Assembly (NCBI GenBank): GCA_947626065.1
Contig: CANQQT010000005.1
Span: 12,252 to 76,251, forward strand
Direction: 5' to 3'
Length of the DNA: 64,000 nt
Origin: an uncultured Clostridia bacterium
GTDB taxonomy: Bacteria; Bacillota; Clostridia; Oscillospirales; CAG-272
The translations under genes and the position numbers were made by a program. Each line of letters opens with the position of its first letter. Positions within the stretch are counted from its first letter, which is position 1. The notes under the pieces were generated by a model, which had not been told where the DNA came from, did no database searches, and saw only the letters and a list, made by a program, of their open reading frames with translations. This document shows, piece by piece, positions 3,164 through 57,735 of this stretch.

Positions 3164-3898
3164 TTATGCCTCGGGGGTAAAATTTTTGTGTGTTCTACGG
3201 ATCCGGATGACGTCGCGGAGCATTTTCAGCGTGTCGCGCACCGGTCTCACCTTCGATTCCGATTCGCGGTGCTGGAGAATGCGAACCGGAAATTCGGTAA
3301 CCTTCATTTTATATTTCCCGGCGAGGATCAGCACCTCCAGGTCAAACGCAAAGCCGTTTACCGTACACTTCCGGAAGATTTTTTCCGCCGCGCTCCTTTT
3401 CATGCACTTGATGCCGCACTGGGAATCGGAATAGGAAAAGCCCGCCAGCAGGGAGATGACGCGAATGTAGGTTTTCGACATCAGCTTCCGCAGGAAGGTA
3501 TACCCCTCGTAGCCGTCGGCGCTGAGATTTCTCGAACCGATCACAAGGTCGGAGCCGGTGTTAAGAAGCTCGTTGTAGATTTCAAAAACGGCGTCACAGC
3601 CGTAGGCGAGATCACAGTCTGTATAGACGACCGCCTCCCCCACAGCGGCAAGAACCCCTTCACGGACGGCGGAGCCTTTCCCCCGGTTGTCGGGATAGCC
3701 GACGACGCGCACCCGGGGGAGCTGCAGCTCCTCGACGGCCTCCGCACAGCGGTCCCGGCTCCCGTCGTTCGAGAAGACGATTTCATAGTCGCCGTCCGGG
3801 AACTTCCCGTCGAAAAAGTCCGTCAGTGTCCGCGCCGTCTGCGCCGCGATTTTTTCCTCGTTGTACATGGGAATGACAATGGATAGCTTGGGAATCAT
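3164..3898 (-). CDS. Family 2 (GT-A fold) glycosyltransferase, polyprenyl-phosphate glycosyltransferase-like
   Basis: 244 aa. Contains LSIVIPMYNEE, FSNDGSRD and TDCDL motifs. ATG start with AGAAAGG upstream. Confidence 0.8.
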   Translation of the reverse strand: MIPKLSIVIPMYNEEKIAAQTARTLTDFFDGKFPDGDYEIVFSNDGSRDRCAEAVEELQLPRVRVVGYPDNRGKGSAVREGVLAAVGEAVVYTDCDLAYGCDAVFEIYNELLNTGSDLVIGSRNLSADGYEGYTFLRKLMSKTYIRVISLLAGFSYSDSQCGIKCMKRSAAEKIFRKCTVNGFAFDLEVLILAGKYKMKVTEFPVRILQHRESESKVRPVRDTLKMLRDVIRIRRTHKNFTPEA

Positions 3899-3912: not shown

Positions 3913-4881
3913 TTATCCGCGGACCGAGGAGACCAGCACGGCATGGACGGCAAGCCGCCCGTTCCGCGTCCGGTTGCTGCAGGTGGAAAGAGTCAGGATT
4001 TTATCCTCCGCGCAAAACTGCGTATCGGTCGGATGAATCGAGTTTCCCTTTACCCGCTCGGCAAATTCCAAAAAGCTCTCGTCCGTCGGGAAATAGGTGG
4101 TGATATACGGATAGTATTTGTCGGTTGCATAGACGGAGAAAATCCGGTAGGTGTACATTCCGTCAAGGGTATACACGATCACCGTCCCGTTTTTCTCGAA
4201 AAAGTCCCGCTCAAGAAAATTATCAAGGGCATGGAACATCGACTGATTCGCCATGTGGTGGCCGTAGAGAATGAGATTTTTATTCTCAAGCGCCGTGCGG
4301 CTACACCGGTAATCGGCGAAAATCGAACCGGCCTCAAGATAGCTTCCCGTGTAGGAATGGTCGAGGTAATAGTCGTTGTCCTCGCTCTGCATGATCGGGT
4401 AATTGATGTTGGTTCCGGGGAGCTCTATCCAGCCGTAAAGATTCGGATAGCGCTGTTTCAGGCTGTAGAGCTTGCTCCGGAAGCGCTCAAACTCCCGGTT
4501 GACGCCGGTCTGCCCCGTCACGCCCTGAAGATCCTCCGCCGACAGATTCTGACTGGCCTCGTAGTCGGGGGTCGCCTGCCCTCCGTAAGAGGACAGCATC
4601 TCCTCCACCCCGTTCTCTCCGCTTCCGCCGACGACGGCGTCGGCCACATTTCCGTAAACATCCTCCGCCTCGCCGTAGCCGACGAGCGAATGCACGATAT
4701 ACCGAACGCTGAGAGCCAGCACCAGCCCGCAGGCAAGGAGTGCGAACAGACGGATATGGTCAAGAAGGAAGGTGAGCGGGGAGAATTTCTTCTTTTCACG
4801 CGGGGCAATCGCGTCCGGCGTCATTTCCATGACCGAGCGGACAAATTCCGATTCTTTTTTTTCGGGCGGAGTCTGCGACAT
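3913..4881 (-). CDS. srtB: Class B sortase
   Basis: 322 aa with an N-terminal TM segment. The catalytic set is LILYGHHM (His), LTLSTC (Cys) and NGRLAVHAV (Arg). The NINYPIMQ..DNDYYLDH segment is typical of class B. Confidence 0.85.
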   Translation of the reverse strand: MSQTPPEKKESEFVRSVMEMTPDAIAPREKKKFSPLTFLLDHIRLFALLACGLVLALSVRYIVHSLVGYGEAEDVYGNVADAVVGGSGENGVEEMLSSYGGQATPDYEASQNLSAEDLQGVTGQTGVNREFERFRSKLYSLKQRYPNLYGWIELPGTNINYPIMQSEDNDYYLDHSYTGSYLEAGSIFADYRCSRTALENKNLILYGHHMANQSMFHALDNFLERDFFEKNGTVIVYTLDGMYTYRIFSVYATDKYYPYITTYFPTDESFLEFAERVKGNSIHPTDTQFCAEDKILTLSTCSNRTRNGRLAVHAVLVSSVRG

Positions 4882-25572: not shown

Positions 25573-28500
25573 TCAGCGCCCCGCGCGTTTCTTAATCCGG
25601 TCGGCTACCGCCGCAAGTCCTACGACGCTGAGAAGCGCGGTGAGGATTGCAGGAAGAACGCCGATTCCCTTCTCTCCGGTGTCGGGAGATCCGGAATCCT
25701 TGGCCTTGTAGACGTAGGTCACTTCCACGTCGCCGTTCATCGTGCCCTTGGCTTCGCCCACTACGTGATCCAGCTTGTAGCCCTTGACGGTCGCGGCCTC
25801 GGTCTGATACGGATCGCCCGCGTTGACCTTCGTCACTACCGTGTCGGCAATCTGCTGATTGTTGGTATCCACGAAACGGACGGTGAGGGTATACTGCACG
25901 TGCTTGTAGACGAAGACGATTTCGGTATCTCCGTCCACCGTGCCGGTCGCCGCCGCGCCCTCGGCGTGGTCGTAAACGTAGTTGGCCACGTTAATGGGAG
26001 TCGCCTCGTAAGCGTCTCCGGCCTTCACGGTCTGCGTCTTCGGGTCGGCGATGTCCTTGCCGGCCTCGTCCACGTAACGGACGGTGAGGGTGTACGGGAT
26101 GCTCTTGTAGACGAAAATCACTTCGGCGTCGGCTTCAAGCGTACCGGTGGTCGGTGCGCCTTCGGCGTGGTCGTAGGTGTAGTGCGGAATCGTGTACGGC
26201 AGAGCCTGATAGGACTCTCCGACCTTCAGGGTCTTCACCGTCGGCTCGACGATGTCGTTTCCTTCCTCGTCCACGTACCGGATCGTGAGGTCATACTCCA
26301 CGGTCAGGCCGGTGAGGGTGATATCCACGTCTTCGGTGCTCAGCGGCTTGCCGCTCTTGTTGCCGTCCTCGGTGGTTTCTACCGTGAGGGTGGTGGTGTA
26401 GTCCTCGTTGATCTTCGGCTCGTAGCTGAACACGGCGTTCATGACCACTTCGTTCATGGTCTCGGCGTCAGCGTAGCCCGCATGGATGGAGCCTGCGTCA
26501 AAGGGCTCCTCCGCGCTGGACAGCACCGCCGTCGTTTCCAACCGCAGGAAGGTGAGCACCGACGGATCGTATTTCAGAACGAAGTCGCCGTTTGTGCTTT
26601 CCTTGGCGCGGATCGGAACGATCACGGTCTTGGTTTCGGGATCGACAAGGACGCTGTCGCTGGGATTGGGCTGAACCTGTACCTCAATAGAGTTCAGGCT
26701 TCCCGCCGTCGTGCCGGGTTTGACGGTCACGGCGGGTTTGGCCGTGGCGGAGGCGTTTTCTCCGATTTCCACCGTGGTTACGGCGGCCGGATTCTTCAGC
26801 GACTTCGCGCCGACGGCGTGCGTAGTGCTTCCCGCACTGCTTCCCGTACCGCTTCCGTCATCGCCGGTGATGGGCTCTCCGGCGTCAACGGCGAAGAGAC
26901 AAGCCGGCCAAACGTCTGCTGCGGTCTGGTCAAGCGCATAGGCGCTGTAATAGGGGTCTCCGCCGTTTTTGCTCTCGGTGTATCTCAGCTGATACAGATA
27001 GGCGCAGTTGTACCCCTTAAAGGAGAGGTAGGGATTGCCGTCGTTTCCGACAACCATCGAGCAGTAAGGCTCGCCCCCTTTAGGGTAAGCGCCGAGGGCT
27101 CCCAGCGTGGTTTCATAGCGCTCGTACATCAATCCGTACATCTCGTATTCGTCGTCCCAGTAGATGTAGAACTTCCAGAGGGTACCCGCGGTGTCGAAGG
27201 AGTAGAGGCAGACGTCTCCGCCGACCATCACGCCGTCTTCTCTCTCAGCCTGCCATTCTTCGTCAACAGCTGCGACGGTGAGCAGCCACATTTCGTCCTC
27301 ACCGATGGCATCGGCAATCTGCCAAGCCACGCTCTGGAATCCGTCGGGCTGATAGGGGCCGAAGAGGTTTCCGGCGTTGACGGCGAAGATGCCGACCTTC
27401 GAGCTTGCGATATCCCACATGATACCGGGGCCGTTGCCCTTCCAGTTCCAAGGGCCGTCCACCGGGGTTCCGTCGGCGGCAAACTCATAGAGCATACCGG
27501 TGGTGTCGGTGAGATAGTAGTGATCACTTCCGTACTTCTGCGTAGCGTTGACCGGGTTGGTGGCCAGCGCGACGCCGGTTTCGATGGTACGATTTCCGAA
27601 GTCCCATTTGAAGAGACGCGGAACGTAATCGTTGTCGCTGAGGATACCGGTGGCGGTTCCGGGGATGATGTAGACGGTGACGTCAACGGTCGCCTCCACC
27701 TCGTTGTTCATGTTGGAAATCGCCCGGAGGGTGGTGTGGCCGATCGATTTTGCGGTGACAAGGCCGTTTGCGCTCACGGTGGCGATGTCGTCATTGTCCG
27801 ACTTCCAGGTGATGCTGCGGTCGTCGAGCTCCGCCGGATGGGCGATGGCCTTGAGGGAAGCGGTAGTGTCGGTCAGCATGGCCAGCTCATCAACGGGAAT
27901 GTGGTACGGCACACCGGCATCGCTTCCCACTTGGTAAATTTCCACCGATTCCACATCTTCCGGCGCGCACAGTTTATCCACATCGCAGAAGAAACGGTAG
28001 TGTGTAAAGTTGCCAGCATAGTCTACGGCTGTCAAAACATATACGCCGGCGAAGTCACCGTAAGGATACCCATAGTCATCGAATAACCACTTATCTTTCG
28101 GAAGATACTCAAACGAAAGGTATTGATCCATCCACACTTCCGAACCCGGGCCGTACTGTTCAACAAGCGGCCCCCTGTCCATCGGAGAAATGGGAATCCA
28201 TTCGCTGTCCAGATCGTCGTTGAGGTGCAAAATCACATTACTGATGTACTGATTGTCCTGAACTCCGTAGAGAAGTTCAAGGACTTCATAATCCGGCCAA
28301 CCAGAGACATAGGCACCCTCATAGTCGTCATATAAGAATTCCGGAGGCGTCAGGTCCACGGTGAAGGTGGTTGAGAGGTAAGCACCCTTGCCAAGCTCGC
28401 CGTTGTCAAGGTCTCCGTCGGTCAGGGCGTCCCAATTGTAGTTTCCGTCCTCATCGGCGTAGTACTCAGGAGCCATGATCAGGGAGAGCTTGATTTTGTC

Positions 28501-31500
28501 TCCTTCTTTCAGAGGTTCCCCTTCGTAGTCGGTGATCGTCCAGTCGATCGGAACGGTGCTGACGGTGTTGAACCATCCGCCGCTGGAGCCCGGCACGTAA
28601 TAGGCGCCGTCCTCCGCCGACAGCTCTTGACGGTAATAGACGGTTTTGCCGTCCTCGCTGGTCACCTGAATCACTCCGGCACCGGCGTTGCGAATCAGCG
28701 CGTAGTGGTAGTATTCCAGACGCATATTGCCGGAGATGGCGTTGCGCTCGGGATAGTAGGTGAAATAGCCGTAATCATCAACGTCAATATCCTGCGGATT
28801 TCCGTAGTAGGGGTAGAGCTCGCTGTGGTCGTCGAGGGCGAGGCTGATATCGAAATAGTTGTAGACAGCGGAACTCCAACCTTCGTCGCCACCGTTTATG
28901 TTAGAGTTGCCCAAGTAGGGGGTACGGGTGTCGCCGGTTCCGGTGTCATGCTCGATCATCGAGCCGACGTCGTACATCGAAGCGTCCGTCCAGTTGCCGT
29001 AGAAGCCCAGCACCGGGATGCTCAGCTCCGGAGGAATCGCGCCGTCATCGGAGGCCAGAGGGTTGGCAAGGAGGAAGGCCTCGATATACGCGCCGTTGGG
29101 ATAACTCTGAGAAATGGTTTGTCTGTCCTGCTCAGACAGGGTGATCGTGACCTTGACTTCGGTCTCGCCGTTTGCGGGAACCTCCGCGCAGGTACGGTCC
29201 TTGGTCAGAAGAATGTGCACGTCGTGGGTATCGACGTCGCCGTCCTCATCCACGTCCATATCCTCTGTGCAGTGGGTGATTTCGGTGCCTTGGATCACGT
29301 AATCCAGCAGGAGCTGGGCGTCCTTGCGGTTGAATTCGCCGTCGCCGTCAAAGTCGTAACGCAACAGGGAATCGTCGCCCACCGGCTTGCCGTCGATCAG
29401 GAAGACCACGTCGGGGGAGAGGTTCGCCGTATACTGCATCAGGTTCTGACCCCGCACGGCCTGCGTGAAGACCGCCGCGTCGAGATCGTAGTACTGTGTG
29501 ACGGAGGAGAGGTTGTGGAGCGTGAAGGTGATCTCGTACTTTCCAACCTTCTTGATATCGTCGCCGAGCTCTACCTTGACCTTGCCGTCCTCCTGTCCCT
29601 TGACGGTGATATACACCGGGGAGGAGATGGCCGCGTCAACGTTGGCAAGGCCGGCGCCCTGTTGGATGACCGGATAGTACCGACCGCTTGCGTCCTTCAT
29701 GGGCTTCGCGGTGCTCATCATCAGCGACTGGGTCAGGCCCCGGACGTTTAAGTCCTTGGCTTTGACTCCCTGATCGCGCAGGTACTGCTGAATCAGCGCG
29801 ACCATACCGGTGATCTGGGGAGCGGCCATCGAGGTTCCGCTCATGGTCTCATAGCTGGAGCCGTCGGGAGCAAGGCCGTTGACGGAATAGATGTTTCCGC
29901 CGGGGGCGGTGATCTCAGGCTTCAGGCTGAGGTCGCCGGGGGCGCCCCAGCTCGAGAAATCGCTCATGGTGTAGGAGCTACTTGAAGTGTAGTCCACCTC
30001 GGCGGGGGTAGCGCGGAAGGTGATCGTACCGGAGTTGATCTCCGCCGGTATGCCGCCGTTGTCGTAACAATATTGCAGAATGGCCAGACCGACGCTGTTC
30101 TGCACGGTCGCCACCGGGATGTGGCCGGTATAGCCGGTAAGGTCGGCAATGATGTTGCTGTTTTCGTAGTTGACGATAATCACGCCGACAGCGCCGAGCT
30201 CCTCGGCCATCTGTACCTTGTGGAGCATCGAGGTGGGTGTCTTTTCATCGATCATACCGCCGCGCCAGCAGATGACGATGTTGCCCTTGGCTTTGCTTCC
30301 GAGGGCCGCGAACATTTTATCCTCGGTGCCGGGAGCGGTACCTTCGTTGACGGTTCCGGGCTGGAGGATGTAGAAGGTATAGTCGGTTCCCTGTCCGCCG
30401 TTCTTATCAAGCGTGGCGAGATGGGGGTTGCCGTAGGAGGTGTCCTCAAGGTAACGGTACTTGTTCCCGTTGACGGTGAACTTCATACCGACGGTTCCCT
30501 GATTTTCTACCGACGCAACGGTGAGGGAATTGCCGTAGCTTCCCGGCTCGCCGCCGGTGTGGAAGTTGACGCCGTCGGAATAGAGGTTTTTGGGAGCGGA
30601 GGAATCGGCCCACGCGCCGGAGTTACCTGCCGAGATGACGACGACAGTCTCGCTGTCGACCAGCGATTTCATCAGGTTGTCGTAGTAAAGGTTCGGGGTG
30701 GACATACCGGGGTTGGAGCCGCCGAGGGAGAGGTTGACGGCGTCGGCCTTCAGCCAGATGGCGTCCTCAATCGCGGCCACGCAGTCGGAGTCGTAAGCAC
30801 CGCCGCCCTTACCGAAGACCTTCATGACCAGAATCTGAGCGTCGGGGGCGTTTCCGACGACCTTCACGGTTTCGAGGGCGTCCTCATAGACGCCGTCCTT
30901 GTCGGAATCGATCAGACGGTTGGCCGCCGCGATACCGGCGACGTGAGAGCCGTGCTCGCTCTGGTTGTCGTTGTCGTGAGTGACGTCGAAGGAATAGTCT
31001 ACGTAGTTATAGCCGAAAGGAACCTTGGCGTTTTTGTAGACCTGCTCGATCTGCTCGGCGGTGACGCCGCGCGTGGCGATGTTCAGCTTGTCCAGAACGT
31101 CGAGGACGTCCTGCGCCTGCATCAGCTGAGCCGTCTTTCCGGTCTTGGTCTCCCAGCGGGAGATCGATTCCAGAAACGCCTCGGGGGCAAAGGACTGGTG
31201 GTCGGTGTCAAGGCCGGTGTCGATGATGGCAATACGGCTTCCCGCTCCGGTATATCCGGCTTCCCAAGCCACATCCGCGGAGTTCATGCCCTCGGATACC
31301 GCCATGTTGGGCACTTTCTCCTCGCTTACCTCCGTCTTATCGGGGGTATACTGCCGTTCCTCCACGACCTGCTCGACGCCGGGAAGCTTCTCGATGTCGG
31401 AAATCAGACCGCGGCGGATGTTGACAGAGATCACGTTGGCGGCAACCGTCAGGTTCCACACCACGTCCAGCTTACCGCCGGACAGGACTTCTTCTTCAAT

Positions 31501-31845
31501 ATCGCCGATGAGCGCGTTCTGCCTGTTGAGCAAAACGTCGCGGTAAGCGATCGCCTGGACGTTGTCCGCGATGTTGTCCGCGGAGTATCCGGCCTCAAGA
31601 AGAGAGTCGGAATCCAGAACGATGGACGCCCGCACGATCTCGTTGGGATCCTTGTCCAGCTTGGAGCCGGAATCCCTTGAGGGGGTCGTGGAGCTTCCGG
31701 AGGATTCCACTGTTTCCAGACGGAATCCGTGTGCAAAAAGCAAGCCTTCGATTGCCGCGTTCAGAACAATGCCCGTCGCCATGACCAGCGTCATCAGCAG
31801 GGCGAGTCCGCGCCGCATCCAGGTCTTGCGCCGTGAATGTGCCAT
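25573..31845 (-). CDS. Cell-envelope subtilisin-family (S8) serine protease, 2090 aa, wall-anchored multidomain
   Basis: N-terminal signal/TM segment. Catalytic residues are D209 (AIIDTG), H298 (EHGSHVAG), N408 (SAGNSG) and S672 (SGTSMAAP). A PA-like insert lies between His/Asn and Ser. There is a dockerin-like EF-hand pair at aa 831-880, a Big_2-like segment, three MucBP-like repeats, and a C-terminal SPDTG-TM-KKRAGR tail. Confidence 0.9.
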   Translation of the reverse strand: MAHSRRKTWMRRGLALLMTLVMATGIVLNAAIEGLLFAHGFRLETVESSGSSTTPSRDSGSKLDKDPNEIVRASIVLDSDSLLEAGYSADNIADNVQAIAYRDVLLNRQNALIGDIEEEVLSGGKLDVVWNLTVAANVISVNIRRGLISDIEKLPGVEQVVEERQYTPDKTEVSEEKVPNMAVSEGMNSADVAWEAGYTGAGSRIAIIDTGLDTDHQSFAPEAFLESISRWETKTGKTAQLMQAQDVLDVLDKLNIATRGVTAEQIEQVYKNAKVPFGYNYVDYSFDVTHDNDNQSEHGSHVAGIAAANRLIDSDKDGVYEDALETVKVVGNAPDAQILVMKVFGKGGGAYDSDCVAAIEDAIWLKADAVNLSLGGSNPGMSTPNLYYDNLMKSLVDSETVVVISAGNSGAWADSSAPKNLYSDGVNFHTGGEPGSYGNSLTVASVENQGTVGMKFTVNGNKYRYLEDTSYGNPHLATLDKNGGQGTDYTFYILQPGTVNEGTAPGTEDKMFAALGSKAKGNIVICWRGGMIDEKTPTSMLHKVQMAEELGAVGVIIVNYENSNIIADLTGYTGHIPVATVQNSVGLAILQYCYDNGGIPAEINSGTITFRATPAEVDYTSSSSYTMSDFSSWGAPGDLSLKPEITAPGGNIYSVNGLAPDGSSYETMSGTSMAAPQITGMVALIQQYLRDQGVKAKDLNVRGLTQSLMMSTAKPMKDASGRYYPVIQQGAGLANVDAAISSPVYITVKGQEDGKVKVELGDDIKKVGKYEITFTLHNLSSVTQYYDLDAAVFTQAVRGQNLMQYTANLSPDVVFLIDGKPVGDDSLLRYDFDGDGEFNRKDAQLLLDYVIQGTEITHCTEDMDVDEDGDVDTHDVHILLTKDRTCAEVPANGETEVKVTITLSEQDRQTISQSYPNGAYIEAFLLANPLASDDGAIPPELSIPVLGFYGNWTDASMYDVGSMIEHDTGTGDTRTPYLGNSNINGGDEGWSSAVYNYFDISLALDDHSELYPYYGNPQDIDVDDYGYFTYYPERNAISGNMRLEYYHYALIRNAGAGVIQVTSEDGKTVYYRQELSAEDGAYYVPGSSGGWFNTVSTVPIDWTITDYEGEPLKEGDKIKLSLIMAPEYYADEDGNYNWDALTDGDLDNGELGKGAYLSTTFTVDLTPPEFLYDDYEGAYVSGWPDYEVLELLYGVQDNQYISNVILHLNDDLDSEWIPISPMDRGPLVEQYGPGSEVWMDQYLSFEYLPKDKWLFDDYGYPYGDFAGVYVLTAVDYAGNFTHYRFFCDVDKLCAPEDVESVEIYQVGSDAGVPYHIPVDELAMLTDTTASLKAIAHPAELDDRSITWKSDNDDIATVSANGLVTAKSIGHTTLRAISNMNNEVEATVDVTVYIIPGTATGILSDNDYVPRLFKWDFGNRTIETGVALATNPVNATQKYGSDHYYLTDTTGMLYEFAADGTPVDGPWNWKGNGPGIMWDIASSKVGIFAVNAGNLFGPYQPDGFQSVAWQIADAIGEDEMWLLTVAAVDEEWQAEREDGVMVGGDVCLYSFDTAGTLWKFYIYWDDEYEMYGLMYERYETTLGALGAYPKGGEPYCSMVVGNDGNPYLSFKGYNCAYLYQLRYTESKNGGDPYYSAYALDQTAADVWPACLFAVDAGEPITGDDGSGTGSSAGSTTHAVGAKSLKNPAAVTTVEIGENASATAKPAVTVKPGTTAGSLNSIEVQVQPNPSDSVLVDPETKTVIVPIRAKESTNGDFVLKYDPSVLTFLRLETTAVLSSAEEPFDAGSIHAGYADAETMNEVVMNAVFSYEPKINEDYTTTLTVETTEDGNKSGKPLSTEDVDITLTGLTVEYDLTIRYVDEEGNDIVEPTVKTLKVGESYQALPYTIPHYTYDHAEGAPTTGTLEADAEVIFVYKSIPYTLTVRYVDEAGKDIADPKTQTVKAGDAYEATPINVANYVYDHAEGAAATGTVDGDTEIVFVYKHVQYTLTVRFVDTNNQQIADTVVTKVNAGDPYQTEAATVKGYKLDHVVGEAKGTMNGDVEVTYVYKAKDSGSPDTGEKGIGVLPAILTALLSVVGLAAVADRIKKRAGR
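25699..26298 (-). repeat. Three tandem 66-67 aa MucBP-like repeats within the protease
   Basis: The pattern Y(D/T)LT(I/V)R(Y/F)VD...G(E/D).Y......(Y)..DH..G...G......E(V/I).(F/Y)VYK occurs three times. Confidence 0.75.
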
Positions 31846-51066: not shown

Positions 51067-51117
51067 AAAGGTCAGTCGATTTTGGGTCAAAAGGGCGAAA
51101 ACCCCGGCCCGTCTCCG

Positions 51118-52191
51118 TTATCCGCGAGGATCTCTTGCCGCTTCCTCGCAGTTCTTCACGACGTCTTCGTAGTTCTTGCCCGACGGGAGGATGGTCGCCA
51201 TCTTTCCGTCGCTGAGGCTGAACTGCGTCTTGTCGCCTTCCACCGTCACGTTGTAAACGGTGCAATTCTCCACCGAGGAGGTGGCGTTGTAGATACGGGA
51301 GGTGATGTAACCGAGCGTATTCACGCTTCCGCCCTTGACAAAGGTGATCTTGCTGTCGTAAACCCGGCAGTCGGTCGCCGTCACGGTCACGTCGTTGCTC
51401 GCGAAGGCGCCGACGATGAATCCGGCGAAGACGGGGCTCTGCTGATGGGTTTCCGGCACGTCGATGATGATTTCCTCATTTTCGACGGTCACTCTCGTCA
51501 CCGAGCCGCTGTTGATGACCGAGAAGAGGCCGTAGAAGCTTCCGTACTGCACACCGAGGTGCGCGGCCTTGGAGCCGGTCACTTTGAAATTCTTCACGGT
51601 GTGGCCCTGTCCGTCAAAGTTGCCATTGAAGGAGGCGCTCATACCGATCGGGAGCCATTCCTGCCCGTTCAGGTCGATATCGGCGTCGAGCAGAACCTTG
51701 TTCCCGTTGAAGTTGTTTCCCTTGATCACGTTGAACTCGTTGTAGCCCTCCTCGTCGGTGAGGTCGCCGTCCCCGTCGGTGTCGACGATGCTGATTCCGG
51801 CGTCGTCATAGTAAACGGATTTGCCGTTTGCGACGAGGTTGGTGAGGTAGGCAAGCCCGGCGAGATCGTAAGCGGTCTTGATGGAATAACCGTCGGTGCC
51901 GTTGCCGCTCAGATACCAGTCAAAGGCCATATGAATCCCGTCGTAGGGAGTCGTTACGTCAAAACCGGTTCCCGCCGGTTCGGTCTCGCTCGGTTCGGTC
52001 TCACTCGGCTTGGTCGCCGCGTCGGTGGCGGCGTCGGTGGCCTTGTCGGATTCGGCGGGCGTCTGCGCCTGCGTTCCTGCGGCCTCGGTTCCGGTGGTCT
52101 CCCCACCGTTTCCGCCCTTATTACAGGAAGCGAGAAGCAGAATTCCCATCACCATGCAGAGGGAGAGAAGAATGGCAATAAGCTTTTTCAT
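51118..52191 (-). CDS. Surface lipoprotein, paralogue 1 of the GLUG-motif-like family
   Basis: Starts MKKLIAILLSLCMVMGILLLASC (lipobox) after AAGGAG. Contains DADIDLNGQEWLPIG, FNGNFDGQGHTVKNFKV and YGLFSVINSG. Confidence 0.8.
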   Translation of the reverse strand: MKKLIAILLSLCMVMGILLLASCNKGGNGGETTGTEAAGTQAQTPAESDKATDAATDAATKPSETEPSETEPAGTGFDVTTPYDGIHMAFDWYLSGNGTDGYSIKTAYDLAGLAYLTNLVANGKSVYYDDAGISIVDTDGDGDLTDEEGYNEFNVIKGNNFNGNKVLLDADIDLNGQEWLPIGMSASFNGNFDGQGHTVKNFKVTGSKAAHLGVQYGSFYGLFSVINSGSVTRVTVENEEIIIDVPETHQQSPVFAGFIVGAFASNDVTVTATDCRVYDSKITFVKGGSVNTLGYITSRIYNATSSVENCTVYNVTVEGDKTQFSLSDGKMATILPSGKNYEDVVKNCEEAARDPRG

Positions 52192-52314
52192 GTTCAAATA
52201 CTCCTTTTTGTAAAAAGGCGGTGCCGCGTCCCGGGGAAAACCGTTCAGCGGCACAGCCAGCCGTTTGCCGCTCCGGAAGGGCTCGGGGGAGTCCTTCCGG
52301 AAGCGAATTACTTT

Positions 52315-53382
52315 TTATTCCGCGTAGGGGTCTCTGGTGAGAACGACGCAGTCCTTCACGCAAGCGGCAAAGTCTCCGCCACCGCCAACGGCGCCGACGA
52401 ACTGATTTTCGCAGATCGAGTACTTCGACGCATCGGCGTCGATCTTGACGTTATAAACTTCGCAGTCGGAGACGAGGCACTGAGCGGAATGGAGGTTACC
52501 GGAGATATAGCTGACGAGAGCCTGCTCGAGCTTACCGGTATTCTCAATCTTGATGGTCCAGTTGTAGACGTTGCAACCGGTGATCCGGTTCGTGCCGTCG
52601 CCCGCGCAGTTGGCGACCACGCCGCCCAGAGCGGCTCCGCCGCTCATGTGAGACTCGGGGTTGCCGAGAGTCGTCTCAAAGTTGTTGAGGGTCAGGTCGG
52701 TGATCGTCGCGCCGTTGATACATCCGAAGAAGCCGTAGTAGCAACCGAGGCTTGCGCCGGAGGTGTGCTTGGCTTCCTCTCCGCGAATCTTGAAGTTGGA
52801 AACGGTGTGTTCATTGCCGTTGAAAACGCCCTTGAAGGAGGTACCGACACCGATAGGCGTCCAGTAGTGGCCGTTCAGGTCGCAGTCAGCGTCAAGATTG
52901 ATGGTACAGCCGTCGAACTGAGAACCCTTGACAGCGTTGAACTGATTGTAGTTCGACTCGTCGTCGACACGACCGTCGCTGTTGGTGTCGGTGAGGAGCA
53001 TATAGCTGTCGTCAAAGTAGATGGTGACCTTCGTTCCGGCGGCGTGAACCAGCATGGTAAAGCCGACCAGATCGTAAACGTTCTTCAGCGTGTAGGTGGT
53101 GGTGGTGTTTTCAAGATACCAACCGAAGGAGGCGTTGATGCCGTCATAGGGCTGCGTGGTATCGAAGGAGGGAGCGGGGGGCTCGGTCACTTCCGCTTCG
53201 GTCGGAGCGGCCTCGGTAGCGGCGTCGGTGGACTTGTCGGATTCGGCAGGATTCTGCGCCTGCGTTCCGGAGGCCTCGGTTCCGGTGGTATCTCCGCCGT
53301 TTCCGCCCTTATTGCAGGCGACAAGCATCACGGAGCCCAGAACCATAAAGAGGGCGAGAAGAATAGCTGTCAGTTTTTTCAT
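52315..53382 (-). CDS. Surface lipoprotein, paralogue 2 of the same family
   Basis: Starts MKKLTAILLALFMVLGSVMLVAC (lipobox). Contains DADCDLNGHYWTPIG, FKGVFNGNEHTVSNFKI and YGFFGCINGA. The start could instead be ATG 53406. Confidence 0.8.
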   Translation of the reverse strand: MKKLTAILLALFMVLGSVMLVACNKGGNGGDTTGTEASGTQAQNPAESDKSTDAATEAAPTEAEVTEPPAPSFDTTQPYDGINASFGWYLENTTTTYTLKNVYDLVGFTMLVHAAGTKVTIYFDDSYMLLTDTNSDGRVDDESNYNQFNAVKGSQFDGCTINLDADCDLNGHYWTPIGVGTSFKGVFNGNEHTVSNFKIRGEEAKHTSGASLGCYYGFFGCINGATITDLTLNNFETTLGNPESHMSGGAALGGVVANCAGDGTNRITGCNVYNWTIKIENTGKLEQALVSYISGNLHSAQCLVSDCEVYNVKIDADASKYSICENQFVGAVGGGGDFAACVKDCVVLTRDPYAE

Positions 53383-53556
53383 GATTTTCTTTGCCTTTTC
53401 AGGCATCCTTTCTTATTTTGGCGGGAAAGCGCCCGGCGCTGTGCCGGTGAGATCCGCGCCTTTTTTTCCGCCCGGGCGTCCCGAAAGACGCCCGGTGCGG
53501 TAAGAATCAGGGATTGACGGGGCCGCCGCAATCGGTCGCCCGTCATGCGCCTTTAC

Positions 53557-54654
53557 TCAGCGGCGCTTTTTGCTGGAAACGAAACCGCAGGTGACAACAC
53601 CGGCAAGAAGCACGGTGGCAACCGAGACGGAAACCATATCCGCAGTCGAGGGGCTTCCTCCGGGAGTCGTCGCGGGCTTATATTCCTCGGTCAGGGAGTT
53701 GCCGTATTCCGCGGCCAGATAATCATTCTTATAGGACGCCGTGGATCCGAACAGCTTGTTGCCCGAGCGAAGAAGCTTGCAGCTTCCAAGCTCCTGCGTT
53801 TCCTTGAATCCGTTGATCTTTACGTTCGTCAGCGTGCCGACGCCGGAATCATTTTCCGGAGAAGGCATACCCATGATCGCACCGCCGCGGATGTCGCAGT
53901 TGCCGTCTTCGGTGGAATTATAGGTGTATACCAGATTGTTGATGGTGACCTTGTCGATGGTAGCGGCAGCCGACCAACCGACAACAGGGCCGGCCATGAG
54001 CGTGCCGGTAGCCTTATTGTCTGCCGTCGTTCCCTTTTTCCCGCCCGTAGCCATGATGGTTACCTGATCGAGGGTGACGTTCTTGAACGTCGCCTTATTG
54101 AAGTAACCGAAGAGGCCGACCGAGATAAAGCGGTCGCTCATGGTAACCTTCGTGCTGTCAAGATAAAGGTTCTTGATGGTATGGTTTTTCCCGTCGAAGG
54201 TTCCCTTAAAGGACGCCTTGGAGCCGCCGATCGGTCTCCACTCTTTTCCGGGGGCTCCGGCAAGATCGATGTCGGCGCCGAGCTCCACGGTTTTGCCCTC
54301 GAAGGCGTCGGTGACAAAGTCGAGCGAACCGGCCGCGTTTGCGGTGGACCCTTCGAGAATCAGATTCCCGGAAGCGTCATAATACAGCTTGTCGAGATCC
54401 GCGCCTTTGTCCGTGTTCTGCGGACGAAGAGCGGCGTCTGCCGACCCGACCAGATAGCTCAGTCCGAGCAGCTCCGCCGGAGTCTTGACCGTGAAGGTGG
54501 TTGCGCTTTTTGCCACACCGTCAACGTACCACTTCACGTTGGCGGTTTTGCCGTCCCAGCCCGCCGCTGAGGTCGGCAGAGCGAAGAGGACGCTGAATAC
54601 CGACAGGACAAGGGTAAGAGCCAGAATCACGCTGAGTTTTTTTGCCTGTTTCAT
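53557..54654 (-). CDS. Secreted surface protein, paralogue 3, with a C-terminal SPSTAD-TM-KKRR tail
   Basis: Signal peptide ...FALPTSAA/GWDGK. Contains GADIDLAGAPGKEWRPIG, FKGTFDGKNHTIKNLYL and VGLFGYFNKA. AAGGAGA RBS. Confidence 0.85.
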   Translation of the reverse strand: MKQAKKLSVILALTLVLSVFSVLFALPTSAAGWDGKTANVKWYVDGVAKSATTFTVKTPAELLGLSYLVGSADAALRPQNTDKGADLDKLYYDASGNLILEGSTANAAGSLDFVTDAFEGKTVELGADIDLAGAPGKEWRPIGGSKASFKGTFDGKNHTIKNLYLDSTKVTMSDRFISVGLFGYFNKATFKNVTLDQVTIMATGGKKGTTADNKATGTLMAGPVVGWSAAATIDKVTINNLVYTYNSTEDGNCDIRGGAIMGMPSPENDSGVGTLTNVKINGFKETQELGSCKLLRSGNKLFGSTASYKNDYLAAEYGNSLTEEYKPATTPGGSPSTADMVSVSVATVLLAGVVTCGFVSSKKRR

Positions 54655-54720
54655 TGCTTGTTTCTCCTTTAAAATAGATTTTTTATTTTGCACCCGCGCA
54701 CGATCTCCTGTGCGTCGGGA

Positions 54721-54754
54721 CAAAACCGAAGGAAATGGGAAACCGCCGTTTCCC
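54721..54754 (-). terminator. Weak terminator after the 981-aa gene
   Basis: Minus sense reads GGGAAAC-ggcg-GTTTCCC followed by ATTTCCTTCGGTTTTG. Confidence 0.4.
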
Positions 54755-54789
54755 GGGACAGGGACTCTTTCACGCGCTTTCGCGCCGGT

Positions 54790-57735
54790 TTATCTCGCGC
54801 TCTTCTTTCTCAGGCGCAGGATTCCCAGGCCGGAAACCGTGCCGACAAGGAGAATGGCGACGGGGAGAAGAATGAAGTCTGCGGTCGCGGGGGCCGAGGT
54901 CTTGGTGTTGACAAGCACGTAGGTGCTGAGGTGATCGGTCACAAAGGACACGGTCTTTCCGTCCGCGCTCATCGTCGCCTTCATATCGGTGACGCTTCCG
55001 TCTTCCTCAGCGCGGTAAACCGCGGCCTCCCAGCCATCCGGAACCTTGAGGGTGACTTTGATCTGCCCGTCGGGCTGAACCTCGGCGCCGGTGGTGAGAT
55101 TCTTGAGGGTGACGTCATAAACGGCGGCGTCCTTGAAGGTTTGCTCGGCGGCCTTTTCGACGGCGGCAAGAGCGTCTTTCGCTTCCTGCTTCTCTTCGGT
55201 CACCGGTTCAACCGTCAGAACAACTTCTTCGTCGTAGTCGGCTTTGGGGTCGGTGTATTCCGCAACCGCGCCGCTGGTCTTGTCTTCGTACTTGTCGAGC
55301 TCCACGTAGTTCGGGTCAGCCGCTCCGCAGACGGTGCAGACGCCCTTCTCGAAGGTGTGCGCCGTTTCGGCGGAACGGGTTCCGCAACCGTTTGCGCATT
55401 CGTGCCAATGCTTCTCGGCGTCGCGGCTCCACTCGGTGGTGGCGAAGACGTGCTCGGTCTTCTCGGTTACCCAGCTGTCCTTGTCGATTTCGTTTTCGCC
55501 CTTATCGTCCGCAAAGTATTTTCCGCAATTATCGCAGGTATAATACTTCGTGTTGCCTTCCGCCGTGCAGGTCGCGTCTTTCGCGGCGGTTTCGGTCAGC
55601 TTGTGACCGGTGGCCTTCAGGACGGTGTCCTTCCTGGTCACCTCTTCGGTGCATTCTTCATCGGTATAATACTTGCCGTCGCATTCGCCGTCTTCCGCGG
55701 TGCAGGTCCAATACTCGATGTTGCCGTCTTCGGTGCAGGTCGGATCCTTCTTTTCCACCTTGTTCGGCACATGGGTATGCTTCAGGCGTCTTTCCGGTTT
55801 CACCGCGCCGCAGGCGCATTTCGAAATCTCATATTTGGGGTTGTTCGAGTCTGTTTCCCATACCCACTTATGAGCCTCTTGTTCCGCTACGGTCAGGTCG
55901 CAGGTCTCGCAGGTAACCTTGTGGGTCTCATTGTCTTGATTGTCCGTGAGAATCAGCTTGTCATGCTCTGTTTCGGCGCTCTTGTAGCCGCACGCTTCGC
56001 AGGTCTGATAGTGCGCGGTGTGGTCGTCATTCTGCGCGTATTTAAGGTCGCCCGTATGGTCTGCCTTGACGATCTCTCCGCTGCAGACGGGGCAAACCTT
56101 CCAGTGGTTGGTAGCGTCGCTCTTCCACTCGCCGCTGTCGTCATGATTCTCTGTCACGCTATAACCGCATTCGCAGGTTCCGGTATGTTGCGTCTCGCTG
56201 GTCTTCTCATAGCTCAGAACGTGCGCGGTCTCGTTGATCTTGACTTTGCACAAGGTGCAGAGATTCCAGTGACCGGTTTTATCTTCATAGGTCAGCTTGT
56301 TATCCGAGACATGGTCTTCCAGATCGGTCATATATTGACAAATATCGCAAAGCTGATAATGCTGATCGCCGGCTGGCTTGTAAGTCAGCGTGTGGGTGTC
56401 CTTGTTCATCTCGGTGTGGCATTCTGTACACTCGTTCCAGTGGCTGGTGCCGTCGGTGTGCCATTGGCCATCCGAAGTATGCGGGATCATCTTGATAACG
56501 GTCTCCTCGAAGTTCTCATATTTCTCGGTACCGTCAACGTTCTTGTAGTATACGCCTACACAGTTCGGATCCGCACTACGGCAAACCCAGTACGCCTCAT
56601 TTCCCACTTCCGTACAGGTGGCGTCTTTCTTCTCTACGGCGATCATTTCGTGCTTGTGTACGTAGTTCGTTTGCACAGTGTTATTGCAACCGTCAGTGTT
56701 GAAGCACTTTTCAAGGAACGTGCCGGGCGTTGATGTGTGTCCAAAGAGATTCTTTGAGGAAGTAGTTACGCTTCCACCGCTGATTTTTACGCCATTGATA
56801 AACACATCATGAATATTTTGAGGATTTCCGTACTTCCCAGTCTGTGATTTGTTAAAATCACCTTCACTATCGATATATCCGATAAATCCTCCACACCGGG
56901 GATTAGATGAGAACGGGGTGCTATTATCAATGGTAATTGTCAGGTTATTCACCGTAACATTTGCAAATTTCGCCTGATTAATAATGCCGCAAATTCCACC
57001 CGTCATAGTATTGTGGTCTGATTTAGTAGTAACTTTAATGGTTTCCTGATCCAATGTCAAATTTTTGACGGTTCCACTGGGATCAATATAACCAAAAAAG
57101 CCGACCATATATGCAGTTTTATTTCCATACGAAACATAGCTGCTGTTAATGTCAATGTTCTTGACGAAATGATCCGCTCCATCAAAAGTTCCTTGGAAGG
57201 GCGCACCGTCATAAATGCCGATAGGAATCCACGGCTTGCCTTCAAGGTCGATATCCGCCGTCAGCTTCACCGTCTTTTTTGTGAACCAAAATTTAATGTC
57301 AAAATTAAGCGTTGCCGCATCCTCAGGAATCTCACTGGCAATCTCGTCTTCCTTCACATAAAGTCTACCGGTGTCCGCGTTATAGAGAAAATGATCGGTA
57401 CACTCTGACGGGAGCCTATCCTTACGGAAGTTATCACTTGTATTATTTGGCTTTCCAGAAGCATCAGGTTGCCTCGATGTCCGGGCGCAAGCATTGACGA
57501 GATAAGAGAGCCCCAACAAATCCGCTGGTGTGGAAATCTCGAATTCGCTGGCATCTGGATTATCCAAATACCATTTGATATTCGGCTTTCCGTCCCATGT
57601 TCCCTCCGCTGTCGCATCTACGCTCGGCTCTGCAGAGGTGAGCAACGGGAAGAGGAACAGGCTCGCGGCAGTGGACAAAACCAAAACCGCTGCCAGCAAG
57701 GCGACAATGCCTTTTTTGCCTAACAATCTTTTCAT
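54790..57735 (-). CDS. 981-aa surface protein, paralogue 4: GLUG-motif-like N-terminal domain, a Cys/His-rich mini-module array, and an APATAD-TM-RKKSAR tail
   Basis: Signal peptide present. Contains TADIDLEGKPWIPIG, FQGTFDGADHFVKNIDI and VGFFGYIDPS. Residues 344-804 carry about ten H-x3-C-x2-C-x8-12-H units. AAGGAG RBS. Confidence 0.85.
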   Translation of the reverse strand: MKRLLGKKGIVALLAAVLVLSTAASLFLFPLLTSAEPSVDATAEGTWDGKPNIKWYLDNPDASEFEISTPADLLGLSYLVNACARTSRQPDASGKPNNTSDNFRKDRLPSECTDHFLYNADTGRLYVKEDEIASEIPEDAATLNFDIKFWFTKKTVKLTADIDLEGKPWIPIGIYDGAPFQGTFDGADHFVKNIDINSSYVSYGNKTAYMVGFFGYIDPSGTVKNLTLDQETIKVTTKSDHNTMTGGICGIINQAKFANVTVNNLTITIDNSTPFSSNPRCGGFIGYIDSEGDFNKSQTGKYGNPQNIHDVFINGVKISGGSVTTSSKNLFGHTSTPGTFLEKCFNTDGCNNTVQTNYVHKHEMIAVEKKDATCTEVGNEAYWVCRSADPNCVGVYYKNVDGTEKYENFEETVIKMIPHTSDGQWHTDGTSHWNECTECHTEMNKDTHTLTYKPAGDQHYQLCDICQYMTDLEDHVSDNKLTYEDKTGHWNLCTLCKVKINETAHVLSYEKTSETQHTGTCECGYSVTENHDDSGEWKSDATNHWKVCPVCSGEIVKADHTGDLKYAQNDDHTAHYQTCEACGYKSAETEHDKLILTDNQDNETHKVTCETCDLTVAEQEAHKWVWETDSNNPKYEISKCACGAVKPERRLKHTHVPNKVEKKDPTCTEDGNIEYWTCTAEDGECDGKYYTDEECTEEVTRKDTVLKATGHKLTETAAKDATCTAEGNTKYYTCDNCGKYFADDKGENEIDKDSWVTEKTEHVFATTEWSRDAEKHWHECANGCGTRSAETAHTFEKGVCTVCGAADPNYVELDKYEDKTSGAVAEYTDPKADYDEEVVLTVEPVTEEKQEAKDALAAVEKAAEQTFKDAAVYDVTLKNLTTGAEVQPDGQIKVTLKVPDGWEAAVYRAEEDGSVTDMKATMSADGKTVSFVTDHLSTYVLVNTKTSAPATADFILLPVAILLVGTVSGLGILRLRKKSAR

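Follow-up and report, generated by a model that had tools for sequence, protein, structure and literature searches.

The class B sortases have remained poorly understood, and in vitro they perform poorly as catalysts. The described system closest to the one considered here is that of C. difficile SrtB (CD2718), a general, non-haem 'housekeeping' sortase that cuts (S/P)PxT|G and whose cleavage is doubled by the two native downstream residues (Asp-x) (PMC4155245). Here we analyze two neighboring surface proteins, of 365 and 981 amino acids (aa), encoded in a 64,000-nucleotide stretch of DNA from an uncultured ruminant-gut Clostridia bacterium (the window, positions 12252-76251 of contig C5; the genome assembly comprises 2.4 Mb in 105 contigs and is 94% complete), the C-terminal tails of which resemble this sorting signal but carry Ala after the Thr. 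These tails represent not a new sorting pathway but a variant, found across the lineage, of an established sortase B signal. We consider it likely that a housekeeping sortase B similar to that of C. difficile acts on both proteins and that its signal in this bacterium is P-x-T-small-Asp.

In C. difficile, Gly occupies the position after the scissile Thr (P1') in every predicted substrate (e.g., CD2831 and CD3392; peptides SDSPKTGDN), and SrtB3 of M. gnavus anchors SPXTG proteins (PMC13121745). For B. anthracis SrtB, the Asp at P2' of DNPKTGDE is needed for full activity (PMC11987632). The first-pass annotation of the window, made from the sequence alone, took Gly to be the residue that normally follows the scissile Thr; for class B this is untrue, given that the archetypal signals are NPQTN in S. 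aureus and NPKSS or NAKTN in Listeria (PMC8225981). Outside class B, Thr-Ala is the natural scissile bond of the class D signal LPNTA, the product of which is joined to diaminopimelate cross-bridges (PMC8225981), and the signal of Lactiplantibacillus plantarum SrtA is LPQTXE, with a degenerate P1' residue and then a fixed acid (PMC3619620). In the literature searched, we found no description of a sortase B signal in which Ala or Ser follows the Thr and precedes an Asp, in agreement with the annotation, which knew of no characterized sortase B substrate with Thr-Ala at this position; the Ruminococcus cellulosome literature yielded no motif detail.

Two surface proteins with Thr-Ala sorting signals

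The genes and the elements of their C-terminal signals are as follows.

53557..54654, minus strand: gene for a 365-aa secreted surface protein (open reading frame (ORF) and translation; ATG at 54654), with a signal peptide, a GLUG-like module (predicted beta-solenoid), a Pro/Thr linker and a C-terminal sorting signal
53638..53655, minus strand: sorting motif S-P-S-T-A-D of the 365-aa protein; predicted scissile bond Thr|Ala, with Asp at P2'
53560..53637, minus strand: tail of the 365-aa protein, hydrophobic helix MVSVSVATVLLAGVVTCGFVSS (53572-53637), then basic KKRR (53560-53571)
54790..57735, minus strand: gene for a 981-aa surface protein (ORF and translation), with a signal peptide, the GLUG-like N-terminal module of the 365-aa protein, an array of His/Cys mini-modules, a C-terminal domain and a sorting signal
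54877..54894, minus strand: sorting motif A-P-A-T-A-D of the 981-aa protein; predicted scissile bond Thr|Ala
54793..54876, minus strand: tail of the 981-aa protein, hydrophobic helix FILLPVAILLVGTVSGLGIL (54817-54876), then basic RLRKKSAR (54793-54816)

Minus-strand translation of 53557-53670 gives the C-terminus of the 365-aa protein as ...TTPGGSPSTADMVSVSVATVLLAGVVTCGFVSSKKRR followed by the stop codon, that is, ...GGSPSTAD-MVSVSVATVLLAGVVTCGFVSS-KKRR, with the SPSTA codons at 53641-53655; translation of 54790-54909 gives the C-terminus of the 981-aa protein as ...NTKTSAPATADFILLPVAILLVGTVSGLGILRLRKKSAR followed by the stop codon, that is, ...TSAPATAD-FILLPVAILLVGTVSGLGIL-RLRKKSAR, with the APATA codons at 54880-54894. 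For the 365-aa protein, the ORF finder also reports an alternative TTG start at 54723, which would yield a protein of 388 aa. Both proteins begin with typical signal peptides and end in a tripartite cell wall sorting signal (motif, hydrophobic helix and Lys/Arg tail).

The same window encodes a large protease with a Gly-type signal.

25573..31845, minus strand: gene for a 2090-aa subtilase with Peptidase_S8, PA, Big_2 and MucBP domains
25672-25689, minus strand: Gly-type signal SPDTGE of the subtilase, followed by a transmembrane helix (TM) and a basic tail

Its C-terminus, again by minus-strand translation, is ...DSGSPDTGEKGIGVLPAILTALLSVVGLAAVADRIKKRAGR followed by the stop codon, that is, ...SGSPDTGE-KGIGVLPAILTALLSVVGLAAVA-DRIKKRAGR. 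The coordinates that the annotation had assigned to SPSTA and APATA are thus correct to the base, and its reading of the three tails is likewise confirmed. Compared with the C. difficile-type (S/P)PxTG signal, the subtilase has the Gly, whereas both of the other proteins have Ala in its place; otherwise, SPST-A-D fits (S/P)-P-x-T with Asp at P2', and APAT-A-D has Ala in place of S/P and likewise the Asp. Pfam and NCBIfam contain models of sorting signals (of the LPXTG-anchor and sortase-B-target types; Gram_pos_anchor). None of the sorting-signal models in these two databases matched the tested tails, namely those of the two Thr-Ala proteins and the subtilase.

A single class B sortase in the genome

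Signals of the form [SA]PxT[GSA][DE] are presumably all handled by one enzyme, which is likewise encoded in the window.

3913..4881, minus strand: class B sortase, 322 aa (TIGR03064; PF04203 match)

This protein scores 187.7 bits against TIGR03064 (cut-off 153.75) and falls far under the cut-offs of the class C, D, E and F models. Its nearest relatives in the PDB are B. anthracis SrtB (1e-40) and C. difficile SrtB (phmmer, ~1e-33), and the catalytic motifs are retained (LYGHH, LTLSTC and GRLAVHA, aligned to the catalytic positions of B. anthracis SrtB). A hydrophobic segment near residue 45, LFALLACGLVLALSV, corresponds to an N-terminal membrane anchor. The neighbors of the gene are a GT2 glycosyltransferase and a phosphoglycerate mutase, and no NEAT or haem genes were seen near it; like C. 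difficile, the bacterium has a single general class B sortase without a haem link. Enzymes dedicated to haem uptake (S. aureus SrtB/IsdC, B. anthracis SrtB/IsdC and L. monocytogenes SrtB) belong to the same class, and natural signals with a residue other than Gly at P1' (Asn, Ser) occur among theirs, but each is dedicated to just one or two proteins with NEAT domains from its own operon, whereas here one enzyme would serve approximately 14 proteins, unrelated or paralogous, that are scattered over the genome.

Altogether, the genome encodes five sortase-family proteins, one of class B, three of class C and a small one, of 215 aa, without an NCBIfam class. The existence of these four additional genes, one of which fits no NCBIfam class, raises the question of whether the signals with Thr-Ala or Thr-Ser are handled by another enzyme: the small sortase, a class C pilus sortase or a non-sortase system such as an exosortase. 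However, the three class C genes and the small sortase gene are located in two pilus-type loci, with adjoining proteins that end in LPFTG or LPQTG. Furthermore, orthologs of the class B sortase (47-56% identity) are present in 17 of the 18 congeners, the exception being a metagenome-assembled genome (MAG) that is 57% complete, and in 11 of the 18, all with Thr-Ser or Thr-Ala signals, a scan of the genus with the Pfam Sortase profile detected the SrtB ortholog as the only PF04203 gene. No match to the exosortase family (PF09721) was found in the genome. Sorting by an exosortase or archaeosortase (PEP-CTERM-like) was rejected on the latter ground and handling by another sortase on the genus-wide sortase counts, so that we regard the involvement of a different enzyme as very improbable.

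All SrtB orthologs of the genus (loci L006-L015 and L169-L175) contain YGHHM, with a second His after the catalytic one, where other genera have YGHN, YGHR or YGHC; the alignment with other genera further shows a TC-x-N-R-x-x-(D/E)-GR loop in the enzymes of the genus. The sister genus, in contrast, has YGHN with equally relaxed signals, and no determinant of the P1' pocket emerged from the alignment. The S1' site is not addressed in the paper on the modeling of C. difficile SrtB.

As a separate observation, the GT2 glycosyltransferase gene (3164-3898) that lies beside srtB is followed, approximately 2 kb further, by a gene for a fused nucleotidyl-transferase/APH-type kinase (LicC/LicA-like; 154-1680). 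These may be wall-glycopolymer decoration genes, in an arrangement reminiscent of the srtB4 capsule cluster of M. gnavus.

Degeneracy of the residue after the scissile Thr within the genome

Using a gene set obtained with a self-trained dicodon model (1,735 proteins, 633,604 aa), we applied a regular expression independent of the motif to retrieve proteins that end in a hydrophobic helix and a basic tail. This search yielded 63 tail-anchored proteins, 13 of which contain [SA]-P-x-T-[G/A/S]-[D/E] at most 10 residues from the helix; a 14th signal, SPDTSD, is located at a contig edge. The residue after the Thr in these 14 signals is Gly in seven, Ser in four and Ala in three, the third Ala-type signal being that of a 695-aa paralog that ends in APDTAD. 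The pattern [SA]PxTA[DE] occurs six times in the whole predicted proteome, three times directly before a C-terminal TM and basic tail (binomial probability ~4e-9); the figures for the Ser form are the same (3/6), and for the Gly form the ratio is 7/11. Several tail-anchored proteins lack the motif, which is therefore not a by-product of a C-terminal helix.

Thus, the local consensus is [SA]-P-x-T-[G/S/A]-[D/E], with a degenerate P1' position. The first-pass annotation had arrived at [SA]-P-x-T-[GA]-[DE], which misses Ser, a residue as common here as Ala; the enrichment before C-terminal anchors on which it had staked its proposal is borne out by the proteome census. Ten of the 13 signal proteins come from a single family of paralogs, the members of which have the N-terminal module found in the 365-aa and 981-aa proteins.

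Looser relatives of the signal in the same genome are NAGTGD, SAATGN, NPSSAD and VPPTFD. Three of these, namely VPPTFD (with Phe after the Thr) and NAGTGD and SAATGN (without the Pro), precede a TM and basic tail in proteins encoded on contigs C104 (121-1170), C44 (3868-5007) and C39 (14871-17693). Outside the window, five surface-protein genes are clustered on contig C2 (53735-64010): one of the products ends in APDTAD, a TM and RRKRK, another in NPSSAD, a TM and KKKKG (with Ser for Thr at P1), and the remaining three have a TM and a poly-Lys tail but no motif.

Census of congeners and of the wider order

Because the word-indexed homolog search did not permit an assessment of tail conservation based on orthologs, we constructed a hidden Markov model (HMM) of 44 positions from the 13 tails and ran it on whole genomes. 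The model recovered all 13 tails in the genome of origin and, in addition, numerous tails in each of the 18 further species-level genomes of the genus; among the congeners, the named ones are 'Clostridia bacterium' MAGs obtained from the colon and rectum of roe deer. The C-termini of 120 of the matches in the genus were fetched and read, yielding 74 non-redundant x-P-x-T-x-[D/E] signals from 16 congeners, with Gly after the Thr in 31, Ser in 24, Ala in 12, Asn in four, Phe in two and Asp in one. The motif census in related genomes, which the annotation had proposed, thus shows the variation to be genus-wide. Together with the genome of origin, the Gly share is 43% of 88 signals. Among the first 62 congener signals, P2' is Asp in 60 and the Pro is present in 55; the first position is mostly N, S, T or A, with N-P-x-T as the commonest start of the motif. 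The congeners also have NPDSSD and SPDSAD. The HMM scores G, S and A nearly alike (34.7, 33.3 and 33.2 bits, respectively), so that the proportions of these three residues can be trusted and are no artefact of the search.

The exchange of residues after the Thr is apparent also among orthologs. In four species, a near-identical helix, VAAYIAVAVVALFGIAYVS, is preceded by SPDTGDN, SPDTNDN, SPNTSDN and NPETGD; in these orthologs, P1' has turned over while P, T and D remained fixed. The congeners with a single sortase also mix the three residues: G007 (95% complete) has two signals with Ala, two with Gly and three with Ser, and G005 and G008 yielded only signals with Ser or Ala. Free exchange of G, S and A with fixed Pro, Thr and Asp speaks for selection on a functional signal and against decay.

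The sister genus (G019) shows the same mixture in eight signals (three with Ala, three with Ser and two with Gly), whereas in 12 further genera of the order Gly predominates (19 signals, against two with Ser and one with Ala). The difference between the two sister genera and the other genera of the order (Gly in 33/78 vs 19/22; Fisher test, 2.4e-4) involves paralogs and orthologs, which are not independent. The relaxation at P1' is lineage-specific. Three reasonably complete genomes of the order without a SrtB match also lack such tails. Given that SrtB is the only sortase in many congeners, that no exosortase was found and that genomes without SrtB lack the tails, SrtB would be the enzyme that sorts these proteins, if they are sorted at all, and would therefore accept Ser and Ala. 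The suggestion of a possible new specificity in the annotation holds in part: Thr-Ala is strongly enriched before C-terminal anchors, but it is not a separate 'Ala' specificity of two proteins, considering that G, S and A interchange across the genus.

The comparison with C. difficile SrtB can accordingly be made at the level of the lineage. Shared with that system are Pro at P3, Thr at P1, usually Asp at P2', S, P, A or N at P4 and the TM helix with a basic tail, as well as diverse adhesin-like or enzyme-like substrates that are not encoded beside the sortase gene. The differences are that Gly, invariant at P1' in C. difficile, accounts here for less than half of the signals and is freely replaced by Ser or Ala, and that P4, S/P in C. 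difficile, is mostly N, S, T or A. The LPQTXE signal of L. plantarum is likewise lineage-wide, with a degenerate residue after the Thr and then a conserved acid, but the enzyme is of class A, the signal starts with Leu-Pro-Gln and the acid is Glu, as opposed to Asp here. SrtC of B. anthracis (class D, LPNTA) has the same T-A scissile bond but belongs to a different class, is sporulation-specific and recognizes LPxTA without a conserved Asp at P2'.

An alternative reading of this variation is that the P1' residue tunes the outcome, such that Gly signals are efficiently linked to the wall and signals with Ser or Ala are processed slowly, resulting in a mixed population of membrane-retained, wall-linked or released molecules. 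Sortases do show graded activity depending on P1', e.g., B. anthracis SrtA prefers LPXTG over LPNTA, as cited in PMC4155245, and in the present genome the substrates outside the expanded paralogous family, such as the subtilase, keep Gly whereas the family varies. However, the G/S/A split between the paralogous family and the three other substrates is not statistically distinguishable at these small numbers, and the free swapping of G, N and S among orthologs argues against a finely tuned role. We consider such tuning to be quite improbable.

Evidence against sorting of the Thr-Ala and Thr-Ser proteins

Several observations weigh against the assignment of both proteins to sortase B. The motif alone does not prove sorting because two C. 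difficile proteins with a perfect SPxTG motif, CD0183 (SPSTG) and CD2768 (SPQTG), are neither cleaved nor anchored to the wall (PMC5569036). All six or seven Ala and Ser signals of the genome are found in a single paralogous family and hence are not independent events. The HMM penalizes other residues at P1' by 4-7 bits and residues other than Asp at P2' by 2.5-15 bits, and ascertainment in a census based on this model accounts in part for the apparent invariance of the Asp and for how rarely other residues occur at P1'. With respect to the enzyme, the alignment of the relaxed lineage with other genera revealed no SrtB residue that would explain a relaxed P1'; the presence of only one sortase in some congeners may reflect incompleteness of the MAGs; and the Pfam Sortase scan missed the SrtB of one congener (G013), in which a protein search found a clear ortholog (E 9e-111), so that true members can escape the first-look filter of the family scan.

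The main rival explanation that emerges from these considerations is that the Thr-Ala and Thr-Ser proteins are not processed, being type I membrane proteins anchored by the C-terminal helix in which the motif is a decaying relic. Compatible with this possibility, in addition to the unprocessed C. difficile proteins and the confinement of the Ala and Ser signals to one family, is the presence in the same genome of several surface proteins that have a C-terminal helix with a Lys tail and lack the motif altogether, which indicates that plain tail-anchoring is used. Decay, however, should also erode the Pro, Thr and Asp, which are kept in essentially all Ala and Ser signals across 17 genomes; moreover, Ser and Ala together outnumber Gly in the genus, and in those SrtB-only congeners that yielded only Ser and Ala signals a conserved enzyme would have no substrates. 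Retention in the membrane therefore seems unlikely to us, and we favor the reading that the two proteins are sortase B substrates.

Domain architecture and tandem paralogs

The 981-aa protein is paralogous to the 365-aa protein and to eight other signal-bearing proteins of the genome. Neither of the two matches any Pfam or NCBIfam family (E <= 0.01). A word-indexed homolog search with the 365-aa protein produced 16 matches, mostly to distant GLUG proteins; PF07581 (GLUG) was detected in eight of 14 distant database homologs, although neither of the two proteins matches it. In the AlphaFold (AF2) model of the 365-aa protein, which is of moderate confidence (predicted local distance difference test score, pLDDT, 71) and mostly beta, a solenoid-like module is followed by a disordered linker and the tail. 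A Foldseek comparison of this model with the PDB gave no significant match (best E 0.05), the non-significant top folds being beta-helix proteins, pectate lyases and the S. pneumoniae IgA1 protease; 'beta-solenoid' is used here as a description of the predicted structure only. Both proteins are probably adhesin-type or binding-type surface modules.

Residues ~344-804 of the 981-aa protein (window 55324-56706) form an array of His/Cys mini-modules of the H-x3-C-x2-C type in an exported protein. The 'CTVCG..DPNY' unit of this array directly precedes the sorting motif in three paralogs, of 695 aa (contig C2), 686 aa (C17) and 616 aa (C32).

Next to the gene for the 365-aa protein are two further members of the family.

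51118..53406, minus strand: two tandem paralogs (378 aa and 363 aa) that share the N-terminal module of the family (from translations)

These two have lipoprotein-type signal peptides (LLASC and LVAC, respectively), no C-terminal sorting signal and no Pfam match, and are not sortase substrates. The region 51118-57735 of the window thus contains four tandem paralogs with one shared GLUG-like N-terminal module and two modes of anchoring: two have a lipoprotein signal without a tail, and two have an ordinary signal peptide and a sortase-type tail. An open frame of 811 aa on the plus strand (51082-53517), antisense to two real genes, is an artefact of high GC content and was dropped after dicodon retraining of the gene caller.

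A tentative model and its implications

Based on the tail sequences and on analogy with characterized sortases, we propose the following tentative model. Both proteins would be exported by the Sec pathway, with the helix and basic tail holding the precursor in the membrane. The signal in this genus and its sister genus would be x-P-x-T-(G/S/A)-D, followed by the membrane helix and a Lys/Arg tail, with Pro (P3), Thr (P1) and Asp (P2') as the fixed recognition points and a P1' residue that needs only to be small. The sortase cysteine would attack the carbonyl of the Thr, releasing the Ala-Asp-TM-tail fragment, and the Thr-acyl enzyme would be resolved by a peptidoglycan amine, presumably that of meso-diaminopimelate, as in C. 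difficile. We infer, then, that the Thr-Ala proteins are cleaved at T|A and covalently attached to the wall. On the broader proposition, that recognition by the SrtB of this lineage has shifted from 'Thr-Gly' to 'Thr-x-Asp', such that the enzyme reads the Asp at P2' and accepts Gly, Ser or Ala, and occasionally Asn, Phe or Asp, at P1', we find the balance to be even.

Surface proteins of Clostridia from gut and rumen are predicted with LPXTG-type models or by the (S/P)PxTG rule. A rule that demands Gly would miss 57% of the signals of this lineage, so that host-facing or fibre-facing adhesins and enzymes would be under-called. The census yields a concrete recognition code that can be tested, in which P3 is Pro, P1 is Thr, P1' is a small residue and P2' is Asp, together with a defined enzyme. 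If the shift to 'Thr-x-Asp' is real, predictors that rely on a motif overlook more than half of the wall-anchored proteome of the lineage. In that case, this SrtB would also be the first example of a natural sortase B that tolerates a broad range of residues at P1', and sortase-mediated ligation would gain an enzyme that has so far gone unused. An enzyme from nature that works without Gly at P1' could be informative for the mechanism of class B sortases as well as for the development of protein-ligation tools.

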